DNA of 64,000 nt from Bacteroidota bacterium (GTDB taxonomy: Bacteria > Bacteroidota > Bacteroidia > Bacteroidales > VadinHA17), in NCBI GenBank assembly GCA_022703405.1, contig JAKLDT010000001.1:1523-65522 (forward strand). Direction: 5' to 3'. The position numbers and the translations under genes were made by a program. Below the pieces are notes generated by a model that searched no databases, had not been told where the DNA came from, and was given only the letters and a program-made list of their open reading frames with translations. Positions 35,073 to 43,685 of this stretch are shown in pieces; position 1 is the first letter of the stretch; each line of letters begins with the position of its first letter.

Positions 35073-35801
35073 TTACAATAATTTTGCGGCATCAGCATCA
35101 AGCAGCCACTCAGCAGTTCCCTGTACAGGAACAATTTTTGAAGCAGGATAGTTCATATAGCCACCCTCCTTTTTAACAACCTGTCGAATAATTTCAGATT
35201 TCTTACCTCCTGTAATAATAAATGCAATCCTGGCTGCATTATTAAGCACCCTGCCTGTTACCGTGATTCTTTTCTGCTTTGTTTCGGGATGTAAGGTAAC
35301 CTCGCAATTTTTTTCCGACTTAAACAGCTTTTCATAACCCGGAAATATTGATGCCGTATGGCCATCCTCTCCCATTCCCAGAATTATGAGGTCAAAAACA
35401 GGCATGCCTTCTGTTTTACTGACGTATTTCTCTATTACAGCTGAATATCTTGCAGCTTCACCTGAAGGATCTTTCTCACCATAGATCCGGTGGATGTTTT
35501 CCTCCGGTATCCTGATTTTCTTAATAAGGTTTCTGAATGCCATTCCAAAATTTGAATCGGGACTAACAGGAGGAACACAGCGTTCATCACCCCAGAAAAA
35601 ATGGACATGGCTCCATGGTGCTGAATTAGTGAAGTGGTCGCCCATTATCGAGAAAAGGAGTTCAGGTGTTGACCCTCCTGACAGTGCAATAGTTACATAG
35701 CGGTTTTCCGAAGCAGCGTCACTTATCATCTTCACTATTTCGCCGGCAAAGGTCTCTGCCAGTTCATACGGGGTACTGAAGACTCTTACTTTTACACTCA
35801 T
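35073..35801 (-). CDS. pgl: 6-phosphogluconolactonase
   Basis: GMGEDGHTASIFPG motif. Overlaps the zwf stop by 4 nt. Confidence 0.9.
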   Translation of the reverse strand: MSVKVRVFSTPYELAETFAGEIVKMISDAASENRYVTIALSGGSTPELLFSIMGDHFTNSAPWSHVHFFWGDERCVPPVSPDSNFGMAFRNLIKKIRIPEENIHRIYGEKDPSGEAARYSAVIEKYVSKTEGMPVFDLIILGMGEDGHTASIFPGYEKLFKSEKNCEVTLHPETKQKRITVTGRVLNNAARIAFIITGGKKSEIIRQVVKKEGGYMNYPASKIVPVQGTAEWLLDADAAKLL

Positions 35802-37321
35802 AATTCACAATAAAGTTCATCATCAGCAAGGTTCTTGCATGGGTATCTCCATGTAAGACCCTCTCCTTCAATTAAATCATTAGTACATTCAGGCCCCCAG
35901 GTACCGGCAGGATAGCCATATACCTTAATTGACGGATCCTCAGCCCAGGCTTTCTGCACGGGCTCAAGGAATTTCCATGCTGTTTCGACCTCATCATCCC
36001 TTGAGAACAGGGTTGAATCACCAGTTGTTACATCGTACAGAAGCCGTTCATAAGCCGAAGGTACCCGTACGTTTGCCAGGTCCTTGTAGTGAAAGTCCAT
36101 ATTGACATTCTTCACATTGAAACCGGCTCCGGGTTCCTTCATATCAAATTTAAGAAGAATTCCCTCATCAGGCTGTATCCTTATAATAAGCTGGTTTGCA
36201 TTTATTTTTCCTGAATCCCTTCTGAAAAGATGGTGAGGAGTAGGCTTAAAATGAATTACAATTTCAGTAACCCGTGTAGGAAGTCTTTTTCCTGTACGTA
36301 TATAAAAAGGCACCCCGCCCCATCTCCAGTTATTTATAAAGAATTTAATCGCTACAAAGGTTTCAGTCCTTGAGTTCTTATCGACCCCTGTCTCCTGCCT
36401 GTATCCCTTAACACATTCTCCACGTATAATCGATGGTGTATACTGACCTCTTATAACCTGCTTAGGCACATCCTCCTGCCTGATAGGCTGCAGGGACTGG
36501 AAGACCTTTAGCACCTCATTCCTGATAGCATTTGAATCAAGTGATGAAGGAGGCTCCATTGCTGTGAGTCCTACCATCTGAAGAAGATGATTCTGTACCA
36601 TGTCTCTGAGTGCACCTGAAGAATCGTAATATCCTCCCCTCTCCTCAACACCGATATTCTCCGACGATGTTATCTCAATACGGTCAATATAATTTCTGTT
36701 CCACAGCGGCTCAAAAAGACCGTTTGCAAAACGCGTTACGAGAAGGTTCTGCACAGTCTCCTTTCCAAGATAATGATCTATCCTGAAAATCTGCTCTTCT
36801 TCAATAATGTCATGCAGTACCTTGTTAAGCTTTCTGCCCGATTCGAGATCGTAACCAAATGGCTTCTCGATAATTATCCTTCTGAAACCAGTCTTGCTCT
36901 TCAGTAATCCTGCTGCGGACAGATTCAGGGCTATAGACTCATACATTACTGGAGGTGTGGCCATGTAAAAAATAAAGTTACCGCTTTTAATATCTGCAGC
37001 ATCTGTCTCTTCAACAAGCTCCCTAAGCCTTCTGAAATCATCCGGATTCCTGTTATCCATTGTAAGATATTTCAGATTAGCGGTAAAAGTATCTATATCC
37101 GTACCGCTGACTTTTTCCTCTGAATATGTCAGTATTGAATCCCTCATCCTGTTTCGGAAATCAGAATCGGTATAGCTTGTTCTTCCTGTACCTATTATTG
37201 AAATTTTATTCGGAAAAAGTCCCTGGGCGCTAAGTGAATATAATGCAGGCATCAGCTTCCTTGAAGTAAGGTCGCCTGAAGCTCCGAAAATGACAAGAAT
37301 CAGATTTTTTGGTTTATCCAT
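35798..37321 (-). CDS. zwf: Glucose-6-phosphate dehydrogenase
   Basis: GASGDLTSRKL NADP-binding motif and RIDHYLGKE active-site motif. Confidence 0.95.
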   Translation of the reverse strand: MDKPKNLILVIFGASGDLTSRKLMPALYSLSAQGLFPNKISIIGTGRTSYTDSDFRNRMRDSILTYSEEKVSGTDIDTFTANLKYLTMDNRNPDDFRRLRELVEETDAADIKSGNFIFYMATPPVMYESIALNLSAAGLLKSKTGFRRIIIEKPFGYDLESGRKLNKVLHDIIEEEQIFRIDHYLGKETVQNLLVTRFANGLFEPLWNRNYIDRIEITSSENIGVEERGGYYDSSGALRDMVQNHLLQMVGLTAMEPPSSLDSNAIRNEVLKVFQSLQPIRQEDVPKQVIRGQYTPSIIRGECVKGYRQETGVDKNSRTETFVAIKFFINNWRWGGVPFYIRTGKRLPTRVTEIVIHFKPTPHHLFRRDSGKINANQLIIRIQPDEGILLKFDMKEPGAGFNVKNVNMDFHYKDLANVRVPSAYERLLYDVTTGDSTLFSRDDEVETAWKFLEPVQKAWAEDPSIKVYGYPAGTWGPECTNDLIEGEGLTWRYPCKNLADDELYCEL

Positions 37322-37525
37322 CAGAAGTAAGGCTTATAACATATTTTGAACCTAAAATTTCCGCCAGGCAAAATAACAATAAATATCTTTAATTGGTTCA
37401 GAATGTAAATTTAAGACAGTCTGAAAAAGACAATGTCAACTTATAATTTAGCAACCTATTTATGATATTTAAAATATTTTATTAATTTTTTTGGTATTTT
37501 ATGCTACAATTTAAAAGATCAATTA

Positions 37526-37686
37526 TATATTTGCACGAAATTAATAAACAGGAATGAGTTTAATTAATCATATCAGGTTCGAAAGTCTCATCGCCAGGCT
37601 ATCTGGAAATGAATGAGGATGGTTTTTATTGTTAAATAGGGATAACCGTTCTCAAGTTTTAATGAGAACGGTTTTTTTGTATAAAT
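37526..37686 (+). promoter_or_regulatory. gltBD promoter plus leader with mutually exclusive antiterminator/terminator hairpins
   Basis: TATATTTG -7 box at 37526-37533. The terminator is AACCGTTCTCA (37644-37654) / TGAGAACGGTT (37663-37673) plus a T-run, and it ends 8 nt before the gltB ATG. The upstream TGAGGATGGTT (37614-37624) can pair with the same 5' arm (9 Watson-Crick plus 2 G-U pairs). Confidence 0.5.
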
Positions 37687-40600
37687 ATGGAAAAAGAAAT
37701 GATAAGAAAAGAACGTCCTGCAAGCCAGGGTTTGTACCGGAAAGAGTTTGAACATGAGAACTGCGGTATTGGTTTTGTTGCACATATTAAAGGAAGAAAA
37801 TCACATTCAATTATAAGACAGGGCCTTGAGGTGCTTGAAAACATGACACACAGGGGCGCTGAAGGTGCTGACAAGAAAACCGGGGACGGGGCAGGAATGC
37901 TCATTCAGGTACCCCGTGATTTTTACCTCATCCAGGGCTACTCACTTCCACCAGAAGGCCAGTTCGGAACAGGGCTGATTTTCCTGCCACAGGAAAAGAA
38001 TGCTGCAGAAAAATGCAGGAATATACTTCTTGGTATTATTAAAGAGGAAGGAGTTAATGTTATTGGTTTCAGGGAGGTTCCCAGAAACAGTGCGGCAATC
38101 GGCGAAATTGCAAAAGCAGCTGAACCAGATATTGTTCAGATACTCCTTGGCGCAGATATAGCACAGGACGAGCTCGAAAGAAAACTATATATAATTAGGA
38201 AGAGGACTGAAAACATTATAAGGGATTCTGATATTGATCAGAAAAGCTTCTTCTATATCCCTTCATTGTCGACCAAGGTATTGGTATACAAGGGGATGCT
38301 GACTTCAATGCAGCTCAGGGAATACTTCCTCGACCTCAGTGATGAAAGAATGCAGAGCGCAATTGCCCTCGTGCATTCACGCTTCAGTACAAATACTTTC
38401 CCAAGCTGGGACCTCGCACAGCCATTCAGGGTGCTTGGTCATAACGGTGAAATAAATACAATAAAGGGAAACAGGTTCTGGATGGAAGCCCGCGAATCAC
38501 TGCTCAAATCGGAAAAGCTGGATGACCTTTCAAGACTTTTCCCTATTGTCGAACCCGGTAAAAGCGATTCAGCCTCACTCGACAATGTTCTTGAATTTCT
38601 GCTTATGAGCGGAAAATCACTGCCTTATGCCATGTCAGTACTGATCCCCGAATCATTCAATACAAAGAATCCTATTTCAAACGAACTCCGGTCATTCTTT
38701 CTGTACCACTCAACCTTCCTGGAACCCTGGGATGGTCCTGCCTCACTGATATTCTCTGACGGAAGGTATATCGGGGGCATGCTCGACAGGAACGGACTTC
38801 GTCCTTCAAGATACCTCATCACTTCAAATGATCTTATAGTTATGGGGTCCGAAACAGGTGTTCAATCATTTCCTGCTTCCGAGATAAGGGAGAAAGGAAG
38901 ACTTAAAGCCGGAAAAATGCTTCTCGTCGACACTGAGGAGGGTAGGGTTTACTATGACGATGAGCTGAAGGCTAAGATCGCAAACGAGTATCCTTACGGG
39001 GAATGGATCAGACAGAATATGGTCACCCTCGAGGAAATAGAATCAGGTCATACAGAATCCCCTGAAATGGGTGACCAGTATGATAAATATCTCACCTCAT
39101 TCAACTACTCACTCGAAGATACTGATAAGATTATCAAGGAAATGGCCGCTACAGGCAAGGAACCTATCAGTTCAATGGGTAATGATGTACCTGTTGCCGT
39201 ACTTTCAAAAAAACCTTACAGGCTTTTTAATTATTTCAAGCAGCTTTTTGCCCAGGTGACAAACCCGCCAATTGATCATATCAGGGAAGAGCTTGTGATG
39301 ACACTAACCGGTTACCTTGGATCATTGCAGCAAAATGTCCTTGACAAATCGCCTTACCATGTAAAAATGGTCCGCTTTAAGAATCCTGTAATCTCAAACA
39401 CTTATTTCCAGATAGTTAAAAATCTGAGATACAAGGGATTCTCTGCTGCAAACCTTTCCCTCCTGTTTGATGCAACTGGTGGCACAACCGCACTGCAGAA
39501 TGCAGTTGACAAGCTTTGTACAGATGCAGAAAAAGCAGTTGATGAAGGTAAAAACTATATTATTCTGTCTGACAGAGGCATTACAGAACAACTTGCCCCT
39601 ATACCCTCGCTTCTGGCTGTATCTGCTGTGCATCATCACCTCATCAGGACAAAAAAGCGCATGCAGATCGATATAGTTGTTGAATCAGCCGAGCCCAGGG
39701 AAGTAATGCATTTTGCCCTTCTCTTCGGCTATGGTGCCAGCATAATAAATCCATATATGAGTTTTGCAGTTATCGACAAACTTGTAAAAAGGAAGGAAAT
39801 ACAACTCGATTATCAGAGGGCTGAGGAGAATTATATTCACGCCATTAATAAGGGAATACTGAAGACTATGTCGAAGATGGGTATAAGCACTCTCAGGAGT
39901 TACCGCTCATCGCAGATCTTCGAAGCAATAGGGATACACCAGGCTGTAATTGACAGGTACTTTGCAGGCACAACTTCAAGAATTGGCGGCATTGGCATAA
40001 ATGAAATCACCGAAGAAATACTGATCCCTCACAGAAAAGCCTTTACTACAGCCAGACAGCCTGAAATACTTACAGAGGGCGTATACGCATACAGGAAAAA
40101 CGGGGAACATCACGGCTGGAATCCTGAAACAATTTCCCTTCTGCAATGGAGCACACGCACTGCCAGCTATGAAAAGTTCAAGGAGTATTCAAAGCTTGTT
40201 GATGCCGACAATGCCCGTCCGGGATTCATAAGAGGACTTCTGAGATACAAGTCAAACCCGATACCTGTTGAGGAGGTTGAGCCTGCTTCAGATATAATGA
40301 AAAGATTTGTTACAGGTGCAATGTCGTATGGTTCAATAAGCCGCGAGGCTCATGAAACACTTGCAATTGCAATGAACAGGATCGGAGGACGTAGCAACAC
40401 CGGCGAAGGCGGAGAAGATCCTGAAAGGTTCAAACCACTGGAGAATGGCGACAGCGCCAGAAGTGCAATCAAACAGGTTGCCAGTGGCCGTTTCGGTGTA
40501 ACAACACATTATCTTGTTAATGCCGATGAGATACAGATTAAGGTAGCCCAGGGAGCAAAACCGGGTGAAGGAGGACAGTTGCCTGGCCATAAGGTTGATA

Positions 40601-42228
40601 AAATAATTGCAAAAACCCGTTACTCAATACCGGGCATCACCCTGATATCGCCGCCTCCGCATCACGACATCTATTCAATTGAAGACCTTGCCCAACTCAT
40701 CTTCGACCTGAAAAATGTAAATCCACAGGCCAGAATAAGTGTAAAGCTTGTTTCTGAAAGCGGAGTGGGAACAATTGCAGCAGGTGTAACAAAAGCAGGA
40801 GCCGACCTGATTACAATAAGCGGTTATGAAGGCGGAACAGGCGCCAGCCCGTCCTCTTCAATAAAACATGCCGGACTTCCTCTTGAACTGGGTCTTGCAG
40901 AAACACAGCAGACTCTTGTAATGAATAACCTCAGAAGGAAGGTTATGCTTCAGACTGACGGGCAGCTGAAGAACGGAAGAGACATCATTATTGCAGCCCT
41001 GCTTGGCGCTGAAGAATTCGGCTTCGCAACAAGCGCACTTGTTGTTCTGGGATGCGTGATGATGCGAAAATGTCATCTGAATACCTGTCCTGTTGGCGTT
41101 GCCACACAGAATGAGGAACTAAGGAAGAGGTTCAGAGGCCAGGCTGATTACCTTGTAACCTTCTTCAGCTTCCTTGCTGAGGAGGTCAGAGAGCACCTTG
41201 CCGGACTAGGCTACAGAAAACTCGATGATATAATTGGCAGAGCTGACCTTCTTGAAAGAAATCCTGATATAACACACTGGAAGATTGCCAACCTCGACCT
41301 TACAGGCTTGCTAGCAATGCCTCAGGAAGCAGCTGCAAATGCACTTCACTGTGTTGACAAACAGGAAAACAAATTAGTCGATCTTCTTGATAATGAACTG
41401 CTTGAACTCTCTTCAGAAGCGATCAGGTCGAAAGTACCTGTCGAAATAAGAAAGACTATTAAAAACACCGACCGTACTGCCGGGGCAATGCTTTCAGGGG
41501 CTATAACCAAATTACATGGCCCTGACGGACTACCGGACGGAACTATAAAATGCCAGTTCACCGGATCGGCAGGTCAGAGCTTCGGGGCTTTCATAGTACC
41601 GGGGGTGGAACTCCACCTTGAAGGAGATTCGAATGATTATATGGGCAAAGGTCTTTCCGGCGGAAGGATTATTGTGGTGCCACCGTCAGGATCGTTATTT
41701 GCACCTGATAAAAACATTATTATCGGTAACACATCCCTTTACGGGGCAACCCGCGGAGAAGCATATATTAATGGTGTGGCCGGTGAGAGGTTTGCTGTAA
41801 GGAACAGCGGTGCAATAGCTGTTGTTGAGGGTACAGGCAACCATTGCTGCGAGTATATGACAGGGGGCAGGGTTGTTGTGCTCGGCACAACGGGCAGTAA
41901 CTTTGCAGCCGGTATGAGCGGCGGAATAGCATACGTTCTGAATGAGAACGACAACTTCGACTACTATTGCAACATGGGAATGGTGGAACTATCACTCGTG
42001 GATGAGTACAGTGATGTGAATGAATTAACAGACCTTATCTCACGCCATTACAAATATACAGGCAGCGCAAAAGCTAAACTGATACTGGATGATATTAACA
42101 AGTATATTCCAATGTTTATCAAGGTGATACCTTACGATTACAAAAGAGTTCTCCAGGAGCAGAAACTTGAGGAGCTCAGGAAGAAAATCGCAAATGTCGA
42201 ACTTGATCTCGAGATCAGCGCCCAATAA
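37687..42228 (+). CDS. gltB: Glutamate synthase large subunit
   Basis: 1513 aa. Ntn-amidotransferase N-terminal region CGIGFVAHIKG, plus FMN and GXGXG domains (e.g. GQLPGHKV, CHLNTCPVGVATQ). Confidence 0.95.
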   Translation: MEKEMIRKERPASQGLYRKEFEHENCGIGFVAHIKGRKSHSIIRQGLEVLENMTHRGAEGADKKTGDGAGMLIQVPRDFYLIQGYSLPPEGQFGTGLIFLPQEKNAAEKCRNILLGIIKEEGVNVIGFREVPRNSAAIGEIAKAAEPDIVQILLGADIAQDELERKLYIIRKRTENIIRDSDIDQKSFFYIPSLSTKVLVYKGMLTSMQLREYFLDLSDERMQSAIALVHSRFSTNTFPSWDLAQPFRVLGHNGEINTIKGNRFWMEARESLLKSEKLDDLSRLFPIVEPGKSDSASLDNVLEFLLMSGKSLPYAMSVLIPESFNTKNPISNELRSFFLYHSTFLEPWDGPASLIFSDGRYIGGMLDRNGLRPSRYLITSNDLIVMGSETGVQSFPASEIREKGRLKAGKMLLVDTEEGRVYYDDELKAKIANEYPYGEWIRQNMVTLEEIESGHTESPEMGDQYDKYLTSFNYSLEDTDKIIKEMAATGKEPISSMGNDVPVAVLSKKPYRLFNYFKQLFAQVTNPPIDHIREELVMTLTGYLGSLQQNVLDKSPYHVKMVRFKNPVISNTYFQIVKNLRYKGFSAANLSLLFDATGGTTALQNAVDKLCTDAEKAVDEGKNYIILSDRGITEQLAPIPSLLAVSAVHHHLIRTKKRMQIDIVVESAEPREVMHFALLFGYGASIINPYMSFAVIDKLVKRKEIQLDYQRAEENYIHAINKGILKTMSKMGISTLRSYRSSQIFEAIGIHQAVIDRYFAGTTSRIGGIGINEITEEILIPHRKAFTTARQPEILTEGVYAYRKNGEHHGWNPETISLLQWSTRTASYEKFKEYSKLVDADNARPGFIRGLLRYKSNPIPVEEVEPASDIMKRFVTGAMSYGSISREAHETLAIAMNRIGGRSNTGEGGEDPERFKPLENGDSARSAIKQVASGRFGVTTHYLVNADEIQIKVAQGAKPGEGGQLPGHKVDKIIAKTRYSIPGITLISPPPHHDIYSIEDLAQLIFDLKNVNPQARISVKLVSESGVGTIAAGVTKAGADLITISGYEGGTGASPSSSIKHAGLPLELGLAETQQTLVMNNLRRKVMLQTDGQLKNGRDIIIAALLGAEEFGFATSALVVLGCVMMRKCHLNTCPVGVATQNEELRKRFRGQADYLVTFFSFLAEEVREHLAGLGYRKLDDIIGRADLLERNPDITHWKIANLDLTGLLAMPQEAAANALHCVDKQENKLVDLLDNELLELSSEAIRSKVPVEIRKTIKNTDRTAGAMLSGAITKLHGPDGLPDGTIKCQFTGSAGQSFGAFIVPGVELHLEGDSNDYMGKGLSGGRIIVVPPSGSLFAPDKNIIIGNTSLYGATRGEAYINGVAGERFAVRNSGAIAVVEGTGNHCCEYMTGGRVVVLGTTGSNFAAGMSGGIAYVLNENDNFDYYCNMGMVELSLVDEYSDVNELTDLISRHYKYTGSAKAKLILDDINKYIPMFIKVIPYDYKRVLQEQKLEELRKKIANVELDLEISAQ

Positions 42229-42256
42229 CTTTTTACTTTTTACTTTTTACTTTTTA
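42229..42256. repeat. (CTTTTTA)x4 heptamer tandem repeat in the gltB-gltD spacer
   Basis: Four perfect units immediately after the gltB stop and 8 nt before the gltD ATG. Confidence 0.9.
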
Positions 42257-42263
42257 CTTGAAT

Positions 42264-43685
42264 ATGGCAGACATAACAGGATTTTTGAAGATAAAACGCA
42301 AGGAAGCAGGCAACAGACCTGTAAATGAAAGAATACGTGACCACAGTGAGGTTGAGCAGATCCTGAACAGCGAGGACAGGATGCTTCAGGCTTCAAGGTG
42401 CATGGAATGCGGCATACCATTCTGCCACTGGAGCTGTCCGGTGGATAACCTTATCCCTGAATGGAACGACCTTCTTTACAAAGGTGACTGGAAAGCAGCT
42501 TACCAGAGGCTCAGTGCAACAAACAACTTCCCTGAGTTTACCGGAAGGATCTGCCCTGCCAGTTGCGAACATGCCTGTGTTCTCAATATAAATAAGGAAC
42601 CGGTCACAATAAGGGAAAATGAAGTTGCAATTGTAGAGCATGCCTTTGCCGAAGGTTATATTAAACCTGTTATCCCTGAGATCAGGACTGGCAAAAAGGT
42701 TGCAGTTATAGGAAGTGGTCCGGCCGGGATGGCTGCTGCCGATCTTCTAAACCAGGCAGGTCATACTGTTACCTTGTTTGAAAAGGATAATAAGCCGGGC
42801 GGCCTTCTCCGCTATGGTATTCCTGACTTCAAGCTTTGCAAGGATACTATTGACCGCCGGATAAGTCTAATGGAAAAGGAGGGCGTGATTGTCAGGACTC
42901 TTGTAACAGTTGGCCGCGATATAAGCCCGGAACAGCTTGAAAAAGAGTTTGATGCAATTTGCATTACAATTGGCGCCGGTCATCCGCGTGACCTGCCGAT
43001 AAATGGCAGAGACCTGAACGGAGTACATTTTGCCATGGACTTTCTTAAACTGCAGAACAGGGTGAATTCAGGTGAACTTGATAGTTCTGACAATCCCATC
43101 AGCGCAGAGGGTAAAAAGGTTGTCGTTATAGGCGGAGGGGATACAGGCTCTGATTGTGTAGGCACTTCCATTCGCCAGAAAGCTGAAAAGGTCACCCAGA
43201 TTGAGATACTTCCCAAACCTCCGGCTGAAAGAACACAGGATAATCCTTGGCCTTACTATGGCAAAGTCCTGAAAACATCTTCCTCTCACGAAGAAGGATG
43301 CGAAAGATACTGGAACATATCCTCTGTCAGGTTCATTGGTGAAAACTTTAAGGTCAGGGCCATTGAAATTGAAGATGTTGAATGGAAAAACATTGATGGG
43401 AAATACACAATGGCACCTGTTCCTGGTTCAAGAAGGAATATTGAGGCTGATCTGGTCCTGCTGGCAATGGGATTTGTTCATCCGGTGCTTGAAGGACTTG
43501 TTACAGATGCCAGGCTGGATCTGAATCTGAGAAAGAATATTAAGGTTGATGATAATTACAAAACCAATCGTCAGAAATTCTTTGCTGCAGGTGATGCAAT
43601 AAGCGGGGCCAGCCTTGTTGTAAATGCAATAGCCTCAGGCCGGAAAGTTGCCGGCGAAATCGACATGTATCTGAAAAACAACTGA
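42264..43685 (+). CDS. gltD: Glutamate synthase small subunit (NADPH-dependent)
   Basis: Cys clusters CMECGIPFC / CPASCEHAC and FAD/NAD motif GSGPAGMAAA. ATG at 42264 is preferred over the TTG at 42258. Confidence 0.9.
   Translation: MADITGFLKIKRKEAGNRPVNERIRDHSEVEQILNSEDRMLQASRCMECGIPFCHWSCPVDNLIPEWNDLLYKGDWKAAYQRLSATNNFPEFTGRICPASCEHACVLNINKEPVTIRENEVAIVEHAFAEGYIKPVIPEIRTGKKVAVIGSGPAGMAAADLLNQAGHTVTLFEKDNKPGGLLRYGIPDFKLCKDTIDRRISLMEKEGVIVRTLVTVGRDISPEQLEKEFDAICITIGAGHPRDLPINGRDLNGVHFAMDFLKLQNRVNSGELDSSDNPISAEGKKVVVIGGGDTGSDCVGTSIRQKAEKVTQIEILPKPPAERTQDNPWPYYGKVLKTSSSHEEGCERYWNISSVRFIGENFKVRAIEIEDVEWKNIDGKYTMAPVPGSRRNIEADLVLLAMGFVHPVLEGLVTDARLDLNLRKNIKVDDNYKTNRQKFFAAGDAISGASLVVNAIASGRKVAGEIDMYLKNN

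Follow-up and report, generated by a model that had tools for sequence, protein, structure and literature searches.

The classical leader-peptide attenuators are those of E. coli trpL, hisL, pheL, thrL and ilvL, and the Bacteroid-trp leader motif is a further example. Glutamate synthase, the entry point of the high-affinity route of ammonium assimilation, is controlled by Lrp in E. coli (gltBDF) and by GltC, TnrA and RocG in B. subtilis (gltAB), where arginine represses the enzyme. To our knowledge, the regulation of glutamate synthase in Bacteroidota is poorly known, and we know of no NtrC-type or GlnR-type paradigm established for the phylum. A cis-acting RNA has been described for related genes in cyanobacteria, where the glutamine riboswitch, or glnA RNA, is found before genes for glutamine synthetase, glutamate synthase, PII and ammonium transporters (PMC2864571). 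Here we describe an RNA leader before gltBD in the window, i.e., the whole stretch of 64,000 nt of Bacteroidota DNA that was analyzed. On balance, this leader is probably a ribosome-mediated, trp-type transcription attenuator of gltBD that works through a leader peptide and is new to description, a reading that we draw from comparative sequence data. A literature search found no published gltB leader or attenuator in Bacteroidota, which agrees with an earlier note on this DNA that knew of no described leader of such kind for Bacteroidota gltBD. The features of the locus are:

35798–37321, minus strand: zwf, the divergent neighbor (TIGR00871, 650 bits)
37526–37533, plus strand: Bacteroidota-type −7 box, TATATTTG, nearly invariant in the alignment of relatives
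37554–37616, plus strand: leader ORF, MSLINHIRFESLIARLSGNE, 20 codons plus UGA
37588–37592, plus strand: candidate segment 1, UCAUC, at codons −9/−8; can pair with GAUGG of arm 2 (37618–37622)
37596–37598, plus strand: Arg codon AGG, candidate control position, six codons before the leader stop
37614–37624, plus strand: putative antiterminator 5′ strand (segment 2), TGAGGATGGTT, conserved core 37615–37623
37644–37654, plus strand: terminator 5′ arm (segment 3), AACCGTTCTCA, the shared strand, also the putative antiterminator 3′ strand
37663–37673, plus strand: terminator 3′ arm (segment 4), TGAGAACGGTT
37672–37678, plus strand: U-run, seven T
37687–43685, plus strand: gltBD, putative target of the leader
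37687–42228, plus strand: gltB, glutamate synthase large subunit (NCBIfam, 1789 bits)
42258–43685, plus strand: gltD, glutamate synthase small subunit (NCBIfam, 615 bits)

Immediately upstream of gltB lies a hairpin that a pattern scan scored as a terminator-like site. Its stem, AACCGTTCTCA with TGAGAACGGTT, has 11 perfect pairs closing a loop of 8 nt, the isolated terminator has a folding energy of −15.2 kcal/mol, and the T-run ends 8 nt before the gltB ATG at 37687. A perfect 11-bp stem with an 8-nt loop and a T-run had been reported in the earlier note, with coordinates that are all correct. Since zwf diverges, the hairpin serves no plus-strand gene further upstream. The same argument had been made before, and it is borne out both by the minus-strand position of zwf and by the related loci, in 70 of 74 of which the gene 5′ of the leader is on the opposite strand. 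A bidirectional terminator for a convergent gene was ruled out, given that zwf diverges and that no T-run follows the hairpin on the minus strand. Where, then, would gltB transcription begin? The −7 box TATATTTG, previously proposed as a TAnnTTTG promoter element, is indeed the sole TAnnTTTG between 36145 and 41898, and transcription is predicted to start at ~37537–37540 (~37538). Because this sole −7 box precedes the leader, and because there is no room for gltB to have a promoter of its own, gltB transcripts must cross the terminator, which argues strongly that it acts as an attenuator of gltB.

There are additional features around the promoter and the start codon. No TTTG −33 element is found at the usual spacing upstream of the −7 box. 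The relatives share a box, TTTATTAAT, ~40 nt upstream of the −7 box (window 37477–37486, TTTTATTAAT), and the main clade has an inverted repeat, TGTTAA-N8-TTAACA, ~100 nt upstream of it (~37440–37470; see, for example, the upstream region of L018). Transcription factors for gltB or for the divergent zwf gene could bind at these two boxes. At the other end of the leader, GltB of most relatives starts at the residue aligned to Met5 of the window protein, so the window gltB start may be 37699 rather than 37687; in that case the distance from the U-run to the start codon would be 20 nt instead of 8 nt.

The hairpin is widely conserved. A scan with the GltB N-terminus, using one genome per species, gave 80 loci from uncultured Bacteroidales with 79%–97% identity, and the leader hairpin is present 4–41 nt before gltB in 77 of these 80 species genomes. 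One of the others (L068) retains the 3′ arm and T-run alone, at a contig end. The remaining two (L020 and L076; GltB 79%–82% identical) lack the hairpin and the leader, and their upstream sequence is unrelated and AT-rich; since these are close relatives without a leader, the attenuator can evidently be lost. Elsewhere, the entire leader aligns across relatives, with the −7 box, an ATG at a fixed distance, a near-invariant GAGRATGGT and an invariant CCGTTCT. The hairpin itself reads CCGTTCTC ... GAGAACGG followed by a T-run. Ordinary terminators do not retain their stem sequence across so many species, and the recurrence of the same arm sequences before gltB in 77 of 80 genomes and in metagenome contigs means that the hairpin is not due to chance. 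The earlier note had called for a covariation analysis, and for the terminator helix the support is clear: across 72 relatives the helix is 98.4% paired, and it beats all 500 shuffles in paired cells, in double-change cells and in covariation score. The CCGTTCT of segment 3 is invariant in the 72 aligned relatives and becomes CCATTCTC in distant lineages only, with arm 4 compensating. The terminator is real and conserved.

Is the element specific to gltB? A metagenome scan for arms 2, 3 and 4 with flexible spacers matched at least 119 contigs. Among the matches listed, gltB is directly downstream in all 112 of the 112 that are genuine and complete, and five others are cut off at the contig end. 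Two apparent copies away from gltB (L111 and L174) were ruled out as chance matches in GC-rich coding DNA. No second copy of the leader was found in the 64-kb window, and the genuine metagenome matches listed all precede gltB; hence, the element is a gltB leader, and a regulon-wide motif is ruled out. The same positional evidence bears on the idea that the leader is an independent small-protein or sRNA gene, in which case gltBD expression would depend on constitutive leak-through or on a cryptic promoter over the U-run. The unit measures ~140 nt from promoter to terminator, like an intergenic sRNA, and many members have a G after the U-run (TTTTTTTG), loosely resembling the TTTG half of a −7 box. 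However, the TA of TAnnTTTG is absent there, the spacing between the U-run and the ATG varies from 4 to 41 nt, and the unit is always directly before gltB and nowhere else among the matches listed. Moreover, the peptide is poorly conserved apart from one residue, and the conserved competing helix described below would have no role. We regard an independent gene as very improbable.

The lineage that carries the leader is abundant in wetlands, peat, sediments and digesters. Outside it, the leader is absent before gltB in a Mariniphaga MAG, a Prolixibacteraceae MAG, a Porphyromonadaceae MAG and the non-Bacteroidota matches. Three Mariniphaga- or Prolixibacteraceae-like sequences (L201 859–885, L202 862–885, L209 363–386) have a common stretch at the −7 box, TAyTTTTG-sTTTCAsTTyGTAA, followed by a gltB 5′ region of ~130 nt; this stretch may be part of another regulatory leader or an operator. 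The Porphyromonadaceae MAG (L203, ~935–975) has gltB directly after a type III glutamine synthetase gene (glnA), with a GC-rich hairpin and T-run ~30 nt before the gltB ATG and no leader ORF. One contig (L105, 7232–7295) has the three arms in an atypical setting, with an unusual upstream region, a 272-nt spacer and a GltB that is only 48% identical, and may represent a diverged or rearranged copy.

There is also evidence for a competing helix. Segment 2, TGAGGATGGTT, is complementary to 37644–37654 at 11 of 11 positions (nine Watson-Crick pairs and two G-U pairs), and the folding energy of the antiterminator segment is −12.6 kcal/mol. A competing segment of 11 positions had been noted previously; all 11 hold in the window, but the relatives keep only the central nine pairs, GAGRAUGGU with ACCGUUCUC. 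These nine are paired in at least 94% of the 72 relatives, and the two outer pairs are limited to the window’s own small clade. The covariation analysis gave a mixed result for this helix. On the one hand, it is conserved, and the changes within it are always compatible (G-U to A-U, A-U to G-U). On the other hand, it has no independent double changes and does not exceed the shuffle control in the 72 relatives; since its two strands do not vary, covariation is essentially absent. RNAalifold, run on the aligned leaders, predicts the terminator as the sole structure and does not predict the antiterminator.

The way in which the three arms change is informative. In the main clade, segment 3 never changes and segment 2 almost never does, while segment 4 drifts freely through A/G transitions that preserve U-A or U-G pairs. 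A strand that stays fixed while its partner drifts with pairing kept fits a strand with two alternative partners. A protein search followed by retrieval of 12 genomic contexts yielded three lineages with variant arms (L205, L207 and L211; GltB 61%–63% identical), in which segment 3 is CCAUUCUC. Here, a C in segment 4 becomes U, so that a G-C pair of the terminator is compensated as A-U, and the segment 2 U that is G-U paired in the main clade is A-U paired. Thus, the three variant-arm lineages show compensation in the terminator and none in the antiterminator. Overall, the three-arm pattern is compatible with a two-partner strand, short of proof.

When the full leader was folded, the terminator was the minimum-free-energy structure in 72 of 74 sequences, and the whole leader folds somewhat better than its shuffles (z = −2.2). 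For transcripts that end before segment 4, the 2:3 helix is predicted in 41 of 74, including the window (9/9 pairs). In the other 33, a long-range helix wins, usually by 0–3 kcal/mol; it joins the 5′ half of the ORF to the 3′ half of segment 2 and the inter-arm region, and recurs among those inspected. This brings in a candidate segment 1. The inner five 1:2 pairs, UCAU(U/C) with (A/G)AUGG, are retained in every clade, with a C-G pair in the window versus U-A in most relatives. In the main clade, the 1:2 helix extends to a long-range helix of 18 pairs that is 78.6% paired, as compared with 31%–51% in slid controls. Its covariation is weak: the double-change cells number 34 versus 25 ± 4 in shuffles, with 8 of 500 shuffles reaching the observed value, for a structure that was drawn from one sequence of the alignment being scored. 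Support is thus moderate, and candidate segment 1 may sequester segment 2.

Segment 2 contains an AUG (37619–37621), 2 nt past the leader UGA, that is present in 171 of 176 leaders, and the U of this AUG makes a G-U pair that keeps the antiterminator weaker than the terminator. An ORF starting at this AUG, as in a termination-reinitiation scheme, was ruled out because its length varies from 2 to 36 codons owing to 1-nt indels.

The central part of the leader is a short ORF. The leader ATG is 16–20 nt from the −7 box in most loci and ~20 nt from it in the window. Among 163 distinct leaders, obtained by pooling the genome set with the metagenome set, the leader frame is open over 19 codons in 145, whereas the other two frames are open in 16 and 8, and the ORF is 19–20 codons long in 125. 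Indels within the ORF come in multiples of three, and frame, length and start position are kept even below 40% peptide identity. The UGA (37614–37616) overlaps the start of arm 2, such that the conserved core begins with its G and A. About 90% of leaders have this overlap, and the U of the UGA is at least 90% conserved although the antiterminator leaves it unpaired in most relatives. At codons −5, −8 and −9, no base is better conserved than the second-position T, a sign that hydrophobic residues are kept there. Summed entropies for codon positions 1, 2 and 3 are 18.4, 19.6 and 21.6, the excess at the third position being modest. The leader peptide matched no family in NCBIfam. Taken together, these patterns suggest that the conserved 20-codon ORF is translated.

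One residue stands out. Position −6 is Arg in 153 of the 163 distinct leaders, encoded by AGG, with four synonymous AGA codons. In a set of 41 peptides with <40% mutual identity, position −6 is Arg in 32, Lys in five and His in one (basic in 38 of 41), and no other position is nearly as conserved; Lys or His replaces Arg in the most distant variants. AGG was considered as a rare “hungry” codon, and this was ruled out since it is the commonest Arg codon in the genome (44%). The codon after the fixed Arg is TTA in 41 of 64 relatives and CTA in the window (37599–37601); these are the two rarest Leu codons among window genes (8% and 3%, respectively). Neither tandem repeats nor a series of control codons for the pathway product occur in the leaders: Gln makes up 0.2% and Glu 2.2% of leader residues, and Arg, Ile and Asn are enriched about twofold.

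Identification of this ORF changes one part of the scheme that had been proposed for the locus. In that scheme, gltBD was attenuated by a leader with a terminator and a mutually exclusive antiterminator, and these elements stand. Its sensing elements, by contrast, were mis-assigned: the conserved ORF at 37554–37616 was overlooked in favor of two mini-ORFs at 37609–37635 and 37613–37639. The mini-ORFs do exist as described but are not conserved: of 176 distinct leaders, 16 have the start codon at 37609 and 56 the one at 37613, and the ORF lengths are erratic.

Alternatively, a trans-acting RNA-binding protein, or a metabolite that binds the leader RNA as in a riboswitch, could decide between terminator and antiterminator, with the ORF being incidental or modulatory. 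Such a mechanism would fit the strong nucleotide invariance of GAGAAUGG and CCGUUCUC, and in the main clade also of UUAGGGAU between them, as well as the better conservation of arm 2 than of arm 4. However, in the divergent members of the family (GltB 63%–68% identical), the ORF, the arms and the Arg at −6 are all retained and the inter-arm UUAGGGAU is gone, which rules this stretch out as an essential protein or ligand site. A conserved ORF frame, length and stop position would not be expected of a riboswitch, and RNAalifold shows no conserved aptamer-like structure beyond the terminator. The Rfam scan proposed in the earlier note for glutamine or other riboswitch classes was run and gave no match. 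Specifically, across the 64-kb window every family stays below its gathering score, and a permissive scan of 37200–37800 with Rfam 15 (E up to 10) returned unrelated snoRNA and miRNA models with E of at least 0.2, far below thresholds. A known riboswitch or leader family at the gltB leader is rejected. Inspection of the leader also revealed no ANTAR dual-hexaloop arrangement; the competing 2:3 helix closes a loop of 19–22 nt, which is unlike the two-hexaloop ANTAR target. We think it quite unlikely that a protein or metabolite is the primary sensor.

How would a trp-type attenuator work at this locus? From the features above we infer both termination and regulation by the leader, as follows. 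Transcription would begin a few bases past the −7 box, at ~37538, and ribosomes would translate the 20-codon ORF as RNA polymerase continues along the leader. A ribosome with UGA in the A site protects roughly 12–15 nt downstream. Thus, a ribosome that moves unhindered to the UGA at 37614 would cover the next 12–15 nt, i.e., the antiterminator strand; segments 3 and 4 would then pair, and transcription would terminate at the U-run just before gltB. A ribosome held within the ORF would instead cover candidate segment 1 and leave segment 2 free. The range of stall positions that might have this effect is approximately codons −11 to −4, centered on the near-invariant Arg at −6. For example, a ribosome with codon −6 in the A site would protect approximately −33 to −5 relative to the stop, covering the core of segment 1 (−26 to −22) and leaving segment 2 exposed. 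Free segment 2 would capture segment 3 before segment 4 is made, allowing polymerase to read into gltBD. Without any translation, segment 1 may pair with segment 2, such that the terminator forms. By this logic, gltBD would be off when the leader is translated fast and on when its translation stalls, as would happen when a charged tRNA is scarce. This would be sensible for an enzyme that is needed when amino acids or nitrogen are scarce.

What might the leader sense? One candidate is the supply of Arg-tRNA, which the leader could report through its single fixed Arg codon. This codon lies 19 nt before segment 2, a spacing close to the one that separates the Trp codons from segment 2 in E. coli trpL. 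Because branched-chain amino acids and arginine modulate glutamate synthase elsewhere, a leader rich in Arg, Ile and Leu is plausible. Nonetheless, one Arg codon alone would make a weak sensor when judged by the classical systems, and the replacement of Arg by Lys at −6 in distant members points to a requirement for charge or for a purine-rich codon rather than to Arg-tRNA sensing. Such a charge or codon, always equally far from the stop, would suit an effect of the nascent chain on ribosome dwell time.

A related explanation keeps the same RNA switch and makes the nascent leader peptide the sensor. Elongation or release close to the stop would be slowed by the basic residue at −6 and the hydrophobic residues at −5, −8 and −9, perhaps with the involvement of a nitrogen-related small molecule. 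As with TnaC or SpeFL, termination would then depend on how long the ribosome masks the antiterminator. That a basic residue at −6 is the sole conserved position in peptides with <40% identity would fit this explanation, and the substitution of Lys for Arg argues for charge over tRNA identity. It is also in keeping with the retention of hydrophobicity through second-position T and with the tight ORF length of 19–20 codons. However, the family has no extended peptide motif in common, whereas known arrest peptides usually carry several invariant residues. In addition, pairing of the RNA with arm 2 accounts for part of the Leu-Ile conservation at −9/−8, and none of the evidence points to a ligand. 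We consider a pure nascent-peptide sensor unlikely.

Returning to the ribosome-mediated attenuator, we tentatively raise the possibility that it is a new type of sensor of nitrogen or amino acid status. The peptide would set gltBD read-through via the time that the ribosome spends on the antiterminator, and the role of the basic residue at −6 would rest on either Arg-tRNA supply or a ligand-dependent pause of the nascent chain. If so, the availability of arginine or nitrogen would be read at the ribosome without a DNA-binding regulator.

What are the implications of such a leader? First, a conserved cis-acting attenuator would provide a concrete, mutable handle on nitrogen control. Second, if the proposed mechanism is true, leader-peptide attenuation would extend to a central nitrogen gene, in a phylum that does not use Shine-Dalgarno pairing. 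Third, one fixed residue at one fixed distance would be a clean case for separating codon-supply sensing from nascent-chain sensing. If the leader is a plain amino-acid-starvation attenuator, the finding is a useful annotation and no surprise; it would carry more weight if a single basic residue defines a new mode of sensing.

The gltBD leader resembles the classical attenuators in several respects. As in those leaders, whose ORFs have 14–30 codons, there is a promoter-proximal ORF and a terminator just before the first structural gene, the putative antiterminator uses the 5′ arm of the terminator, and the stop codon is placed such that a ribosome would mask the antiterminator. The resemblance extends to a candidate control codon ~19 nt upstream of segment 2 and to a possible 1:2 helix. 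Unlike the classical systems, the leader precedes glutamate synthase genes, which are not among the classical attenuated operons; it has a single Arg (or Lys) at a fixed distance from the stop in place of tandem codons for the product; and it occurs in a phylum without Shine-Dalgarno initiation and has no Rfam model. With TnaC, SpeFL and the fungal arginine attenuator peptide, it shares a short upstream ORF and a conserved residue at a fixed distance from the stop, and dwell time near the stop would similarly decide the outcome for transcription termination. Those systems act through Rho-dependent termination or translation and have multi-residue motifs and known ligands, whereas the gltBD leader would act on an intrinsic terminator via a masked antiterminator and has one basic position, with no ligand indicated. 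Like glnA RNA, it is a cis-acting RNA 5′ of nitrogen-assimilation genes that include glutamate synthase; glnA RNA, however, is a ligand-binding aptamer without a leader ORF, and the gltBD element consists of an ORF and a terminator, with no match to glnA RNA in sequence or structure. Lastly, glutamate synthase is the physiological target here as it is for Lrp, GltC, TnrA and RocG. These are proteins that control initiation at the DNA, whereas the gltBD leader would act after initiation, through RNA structure.
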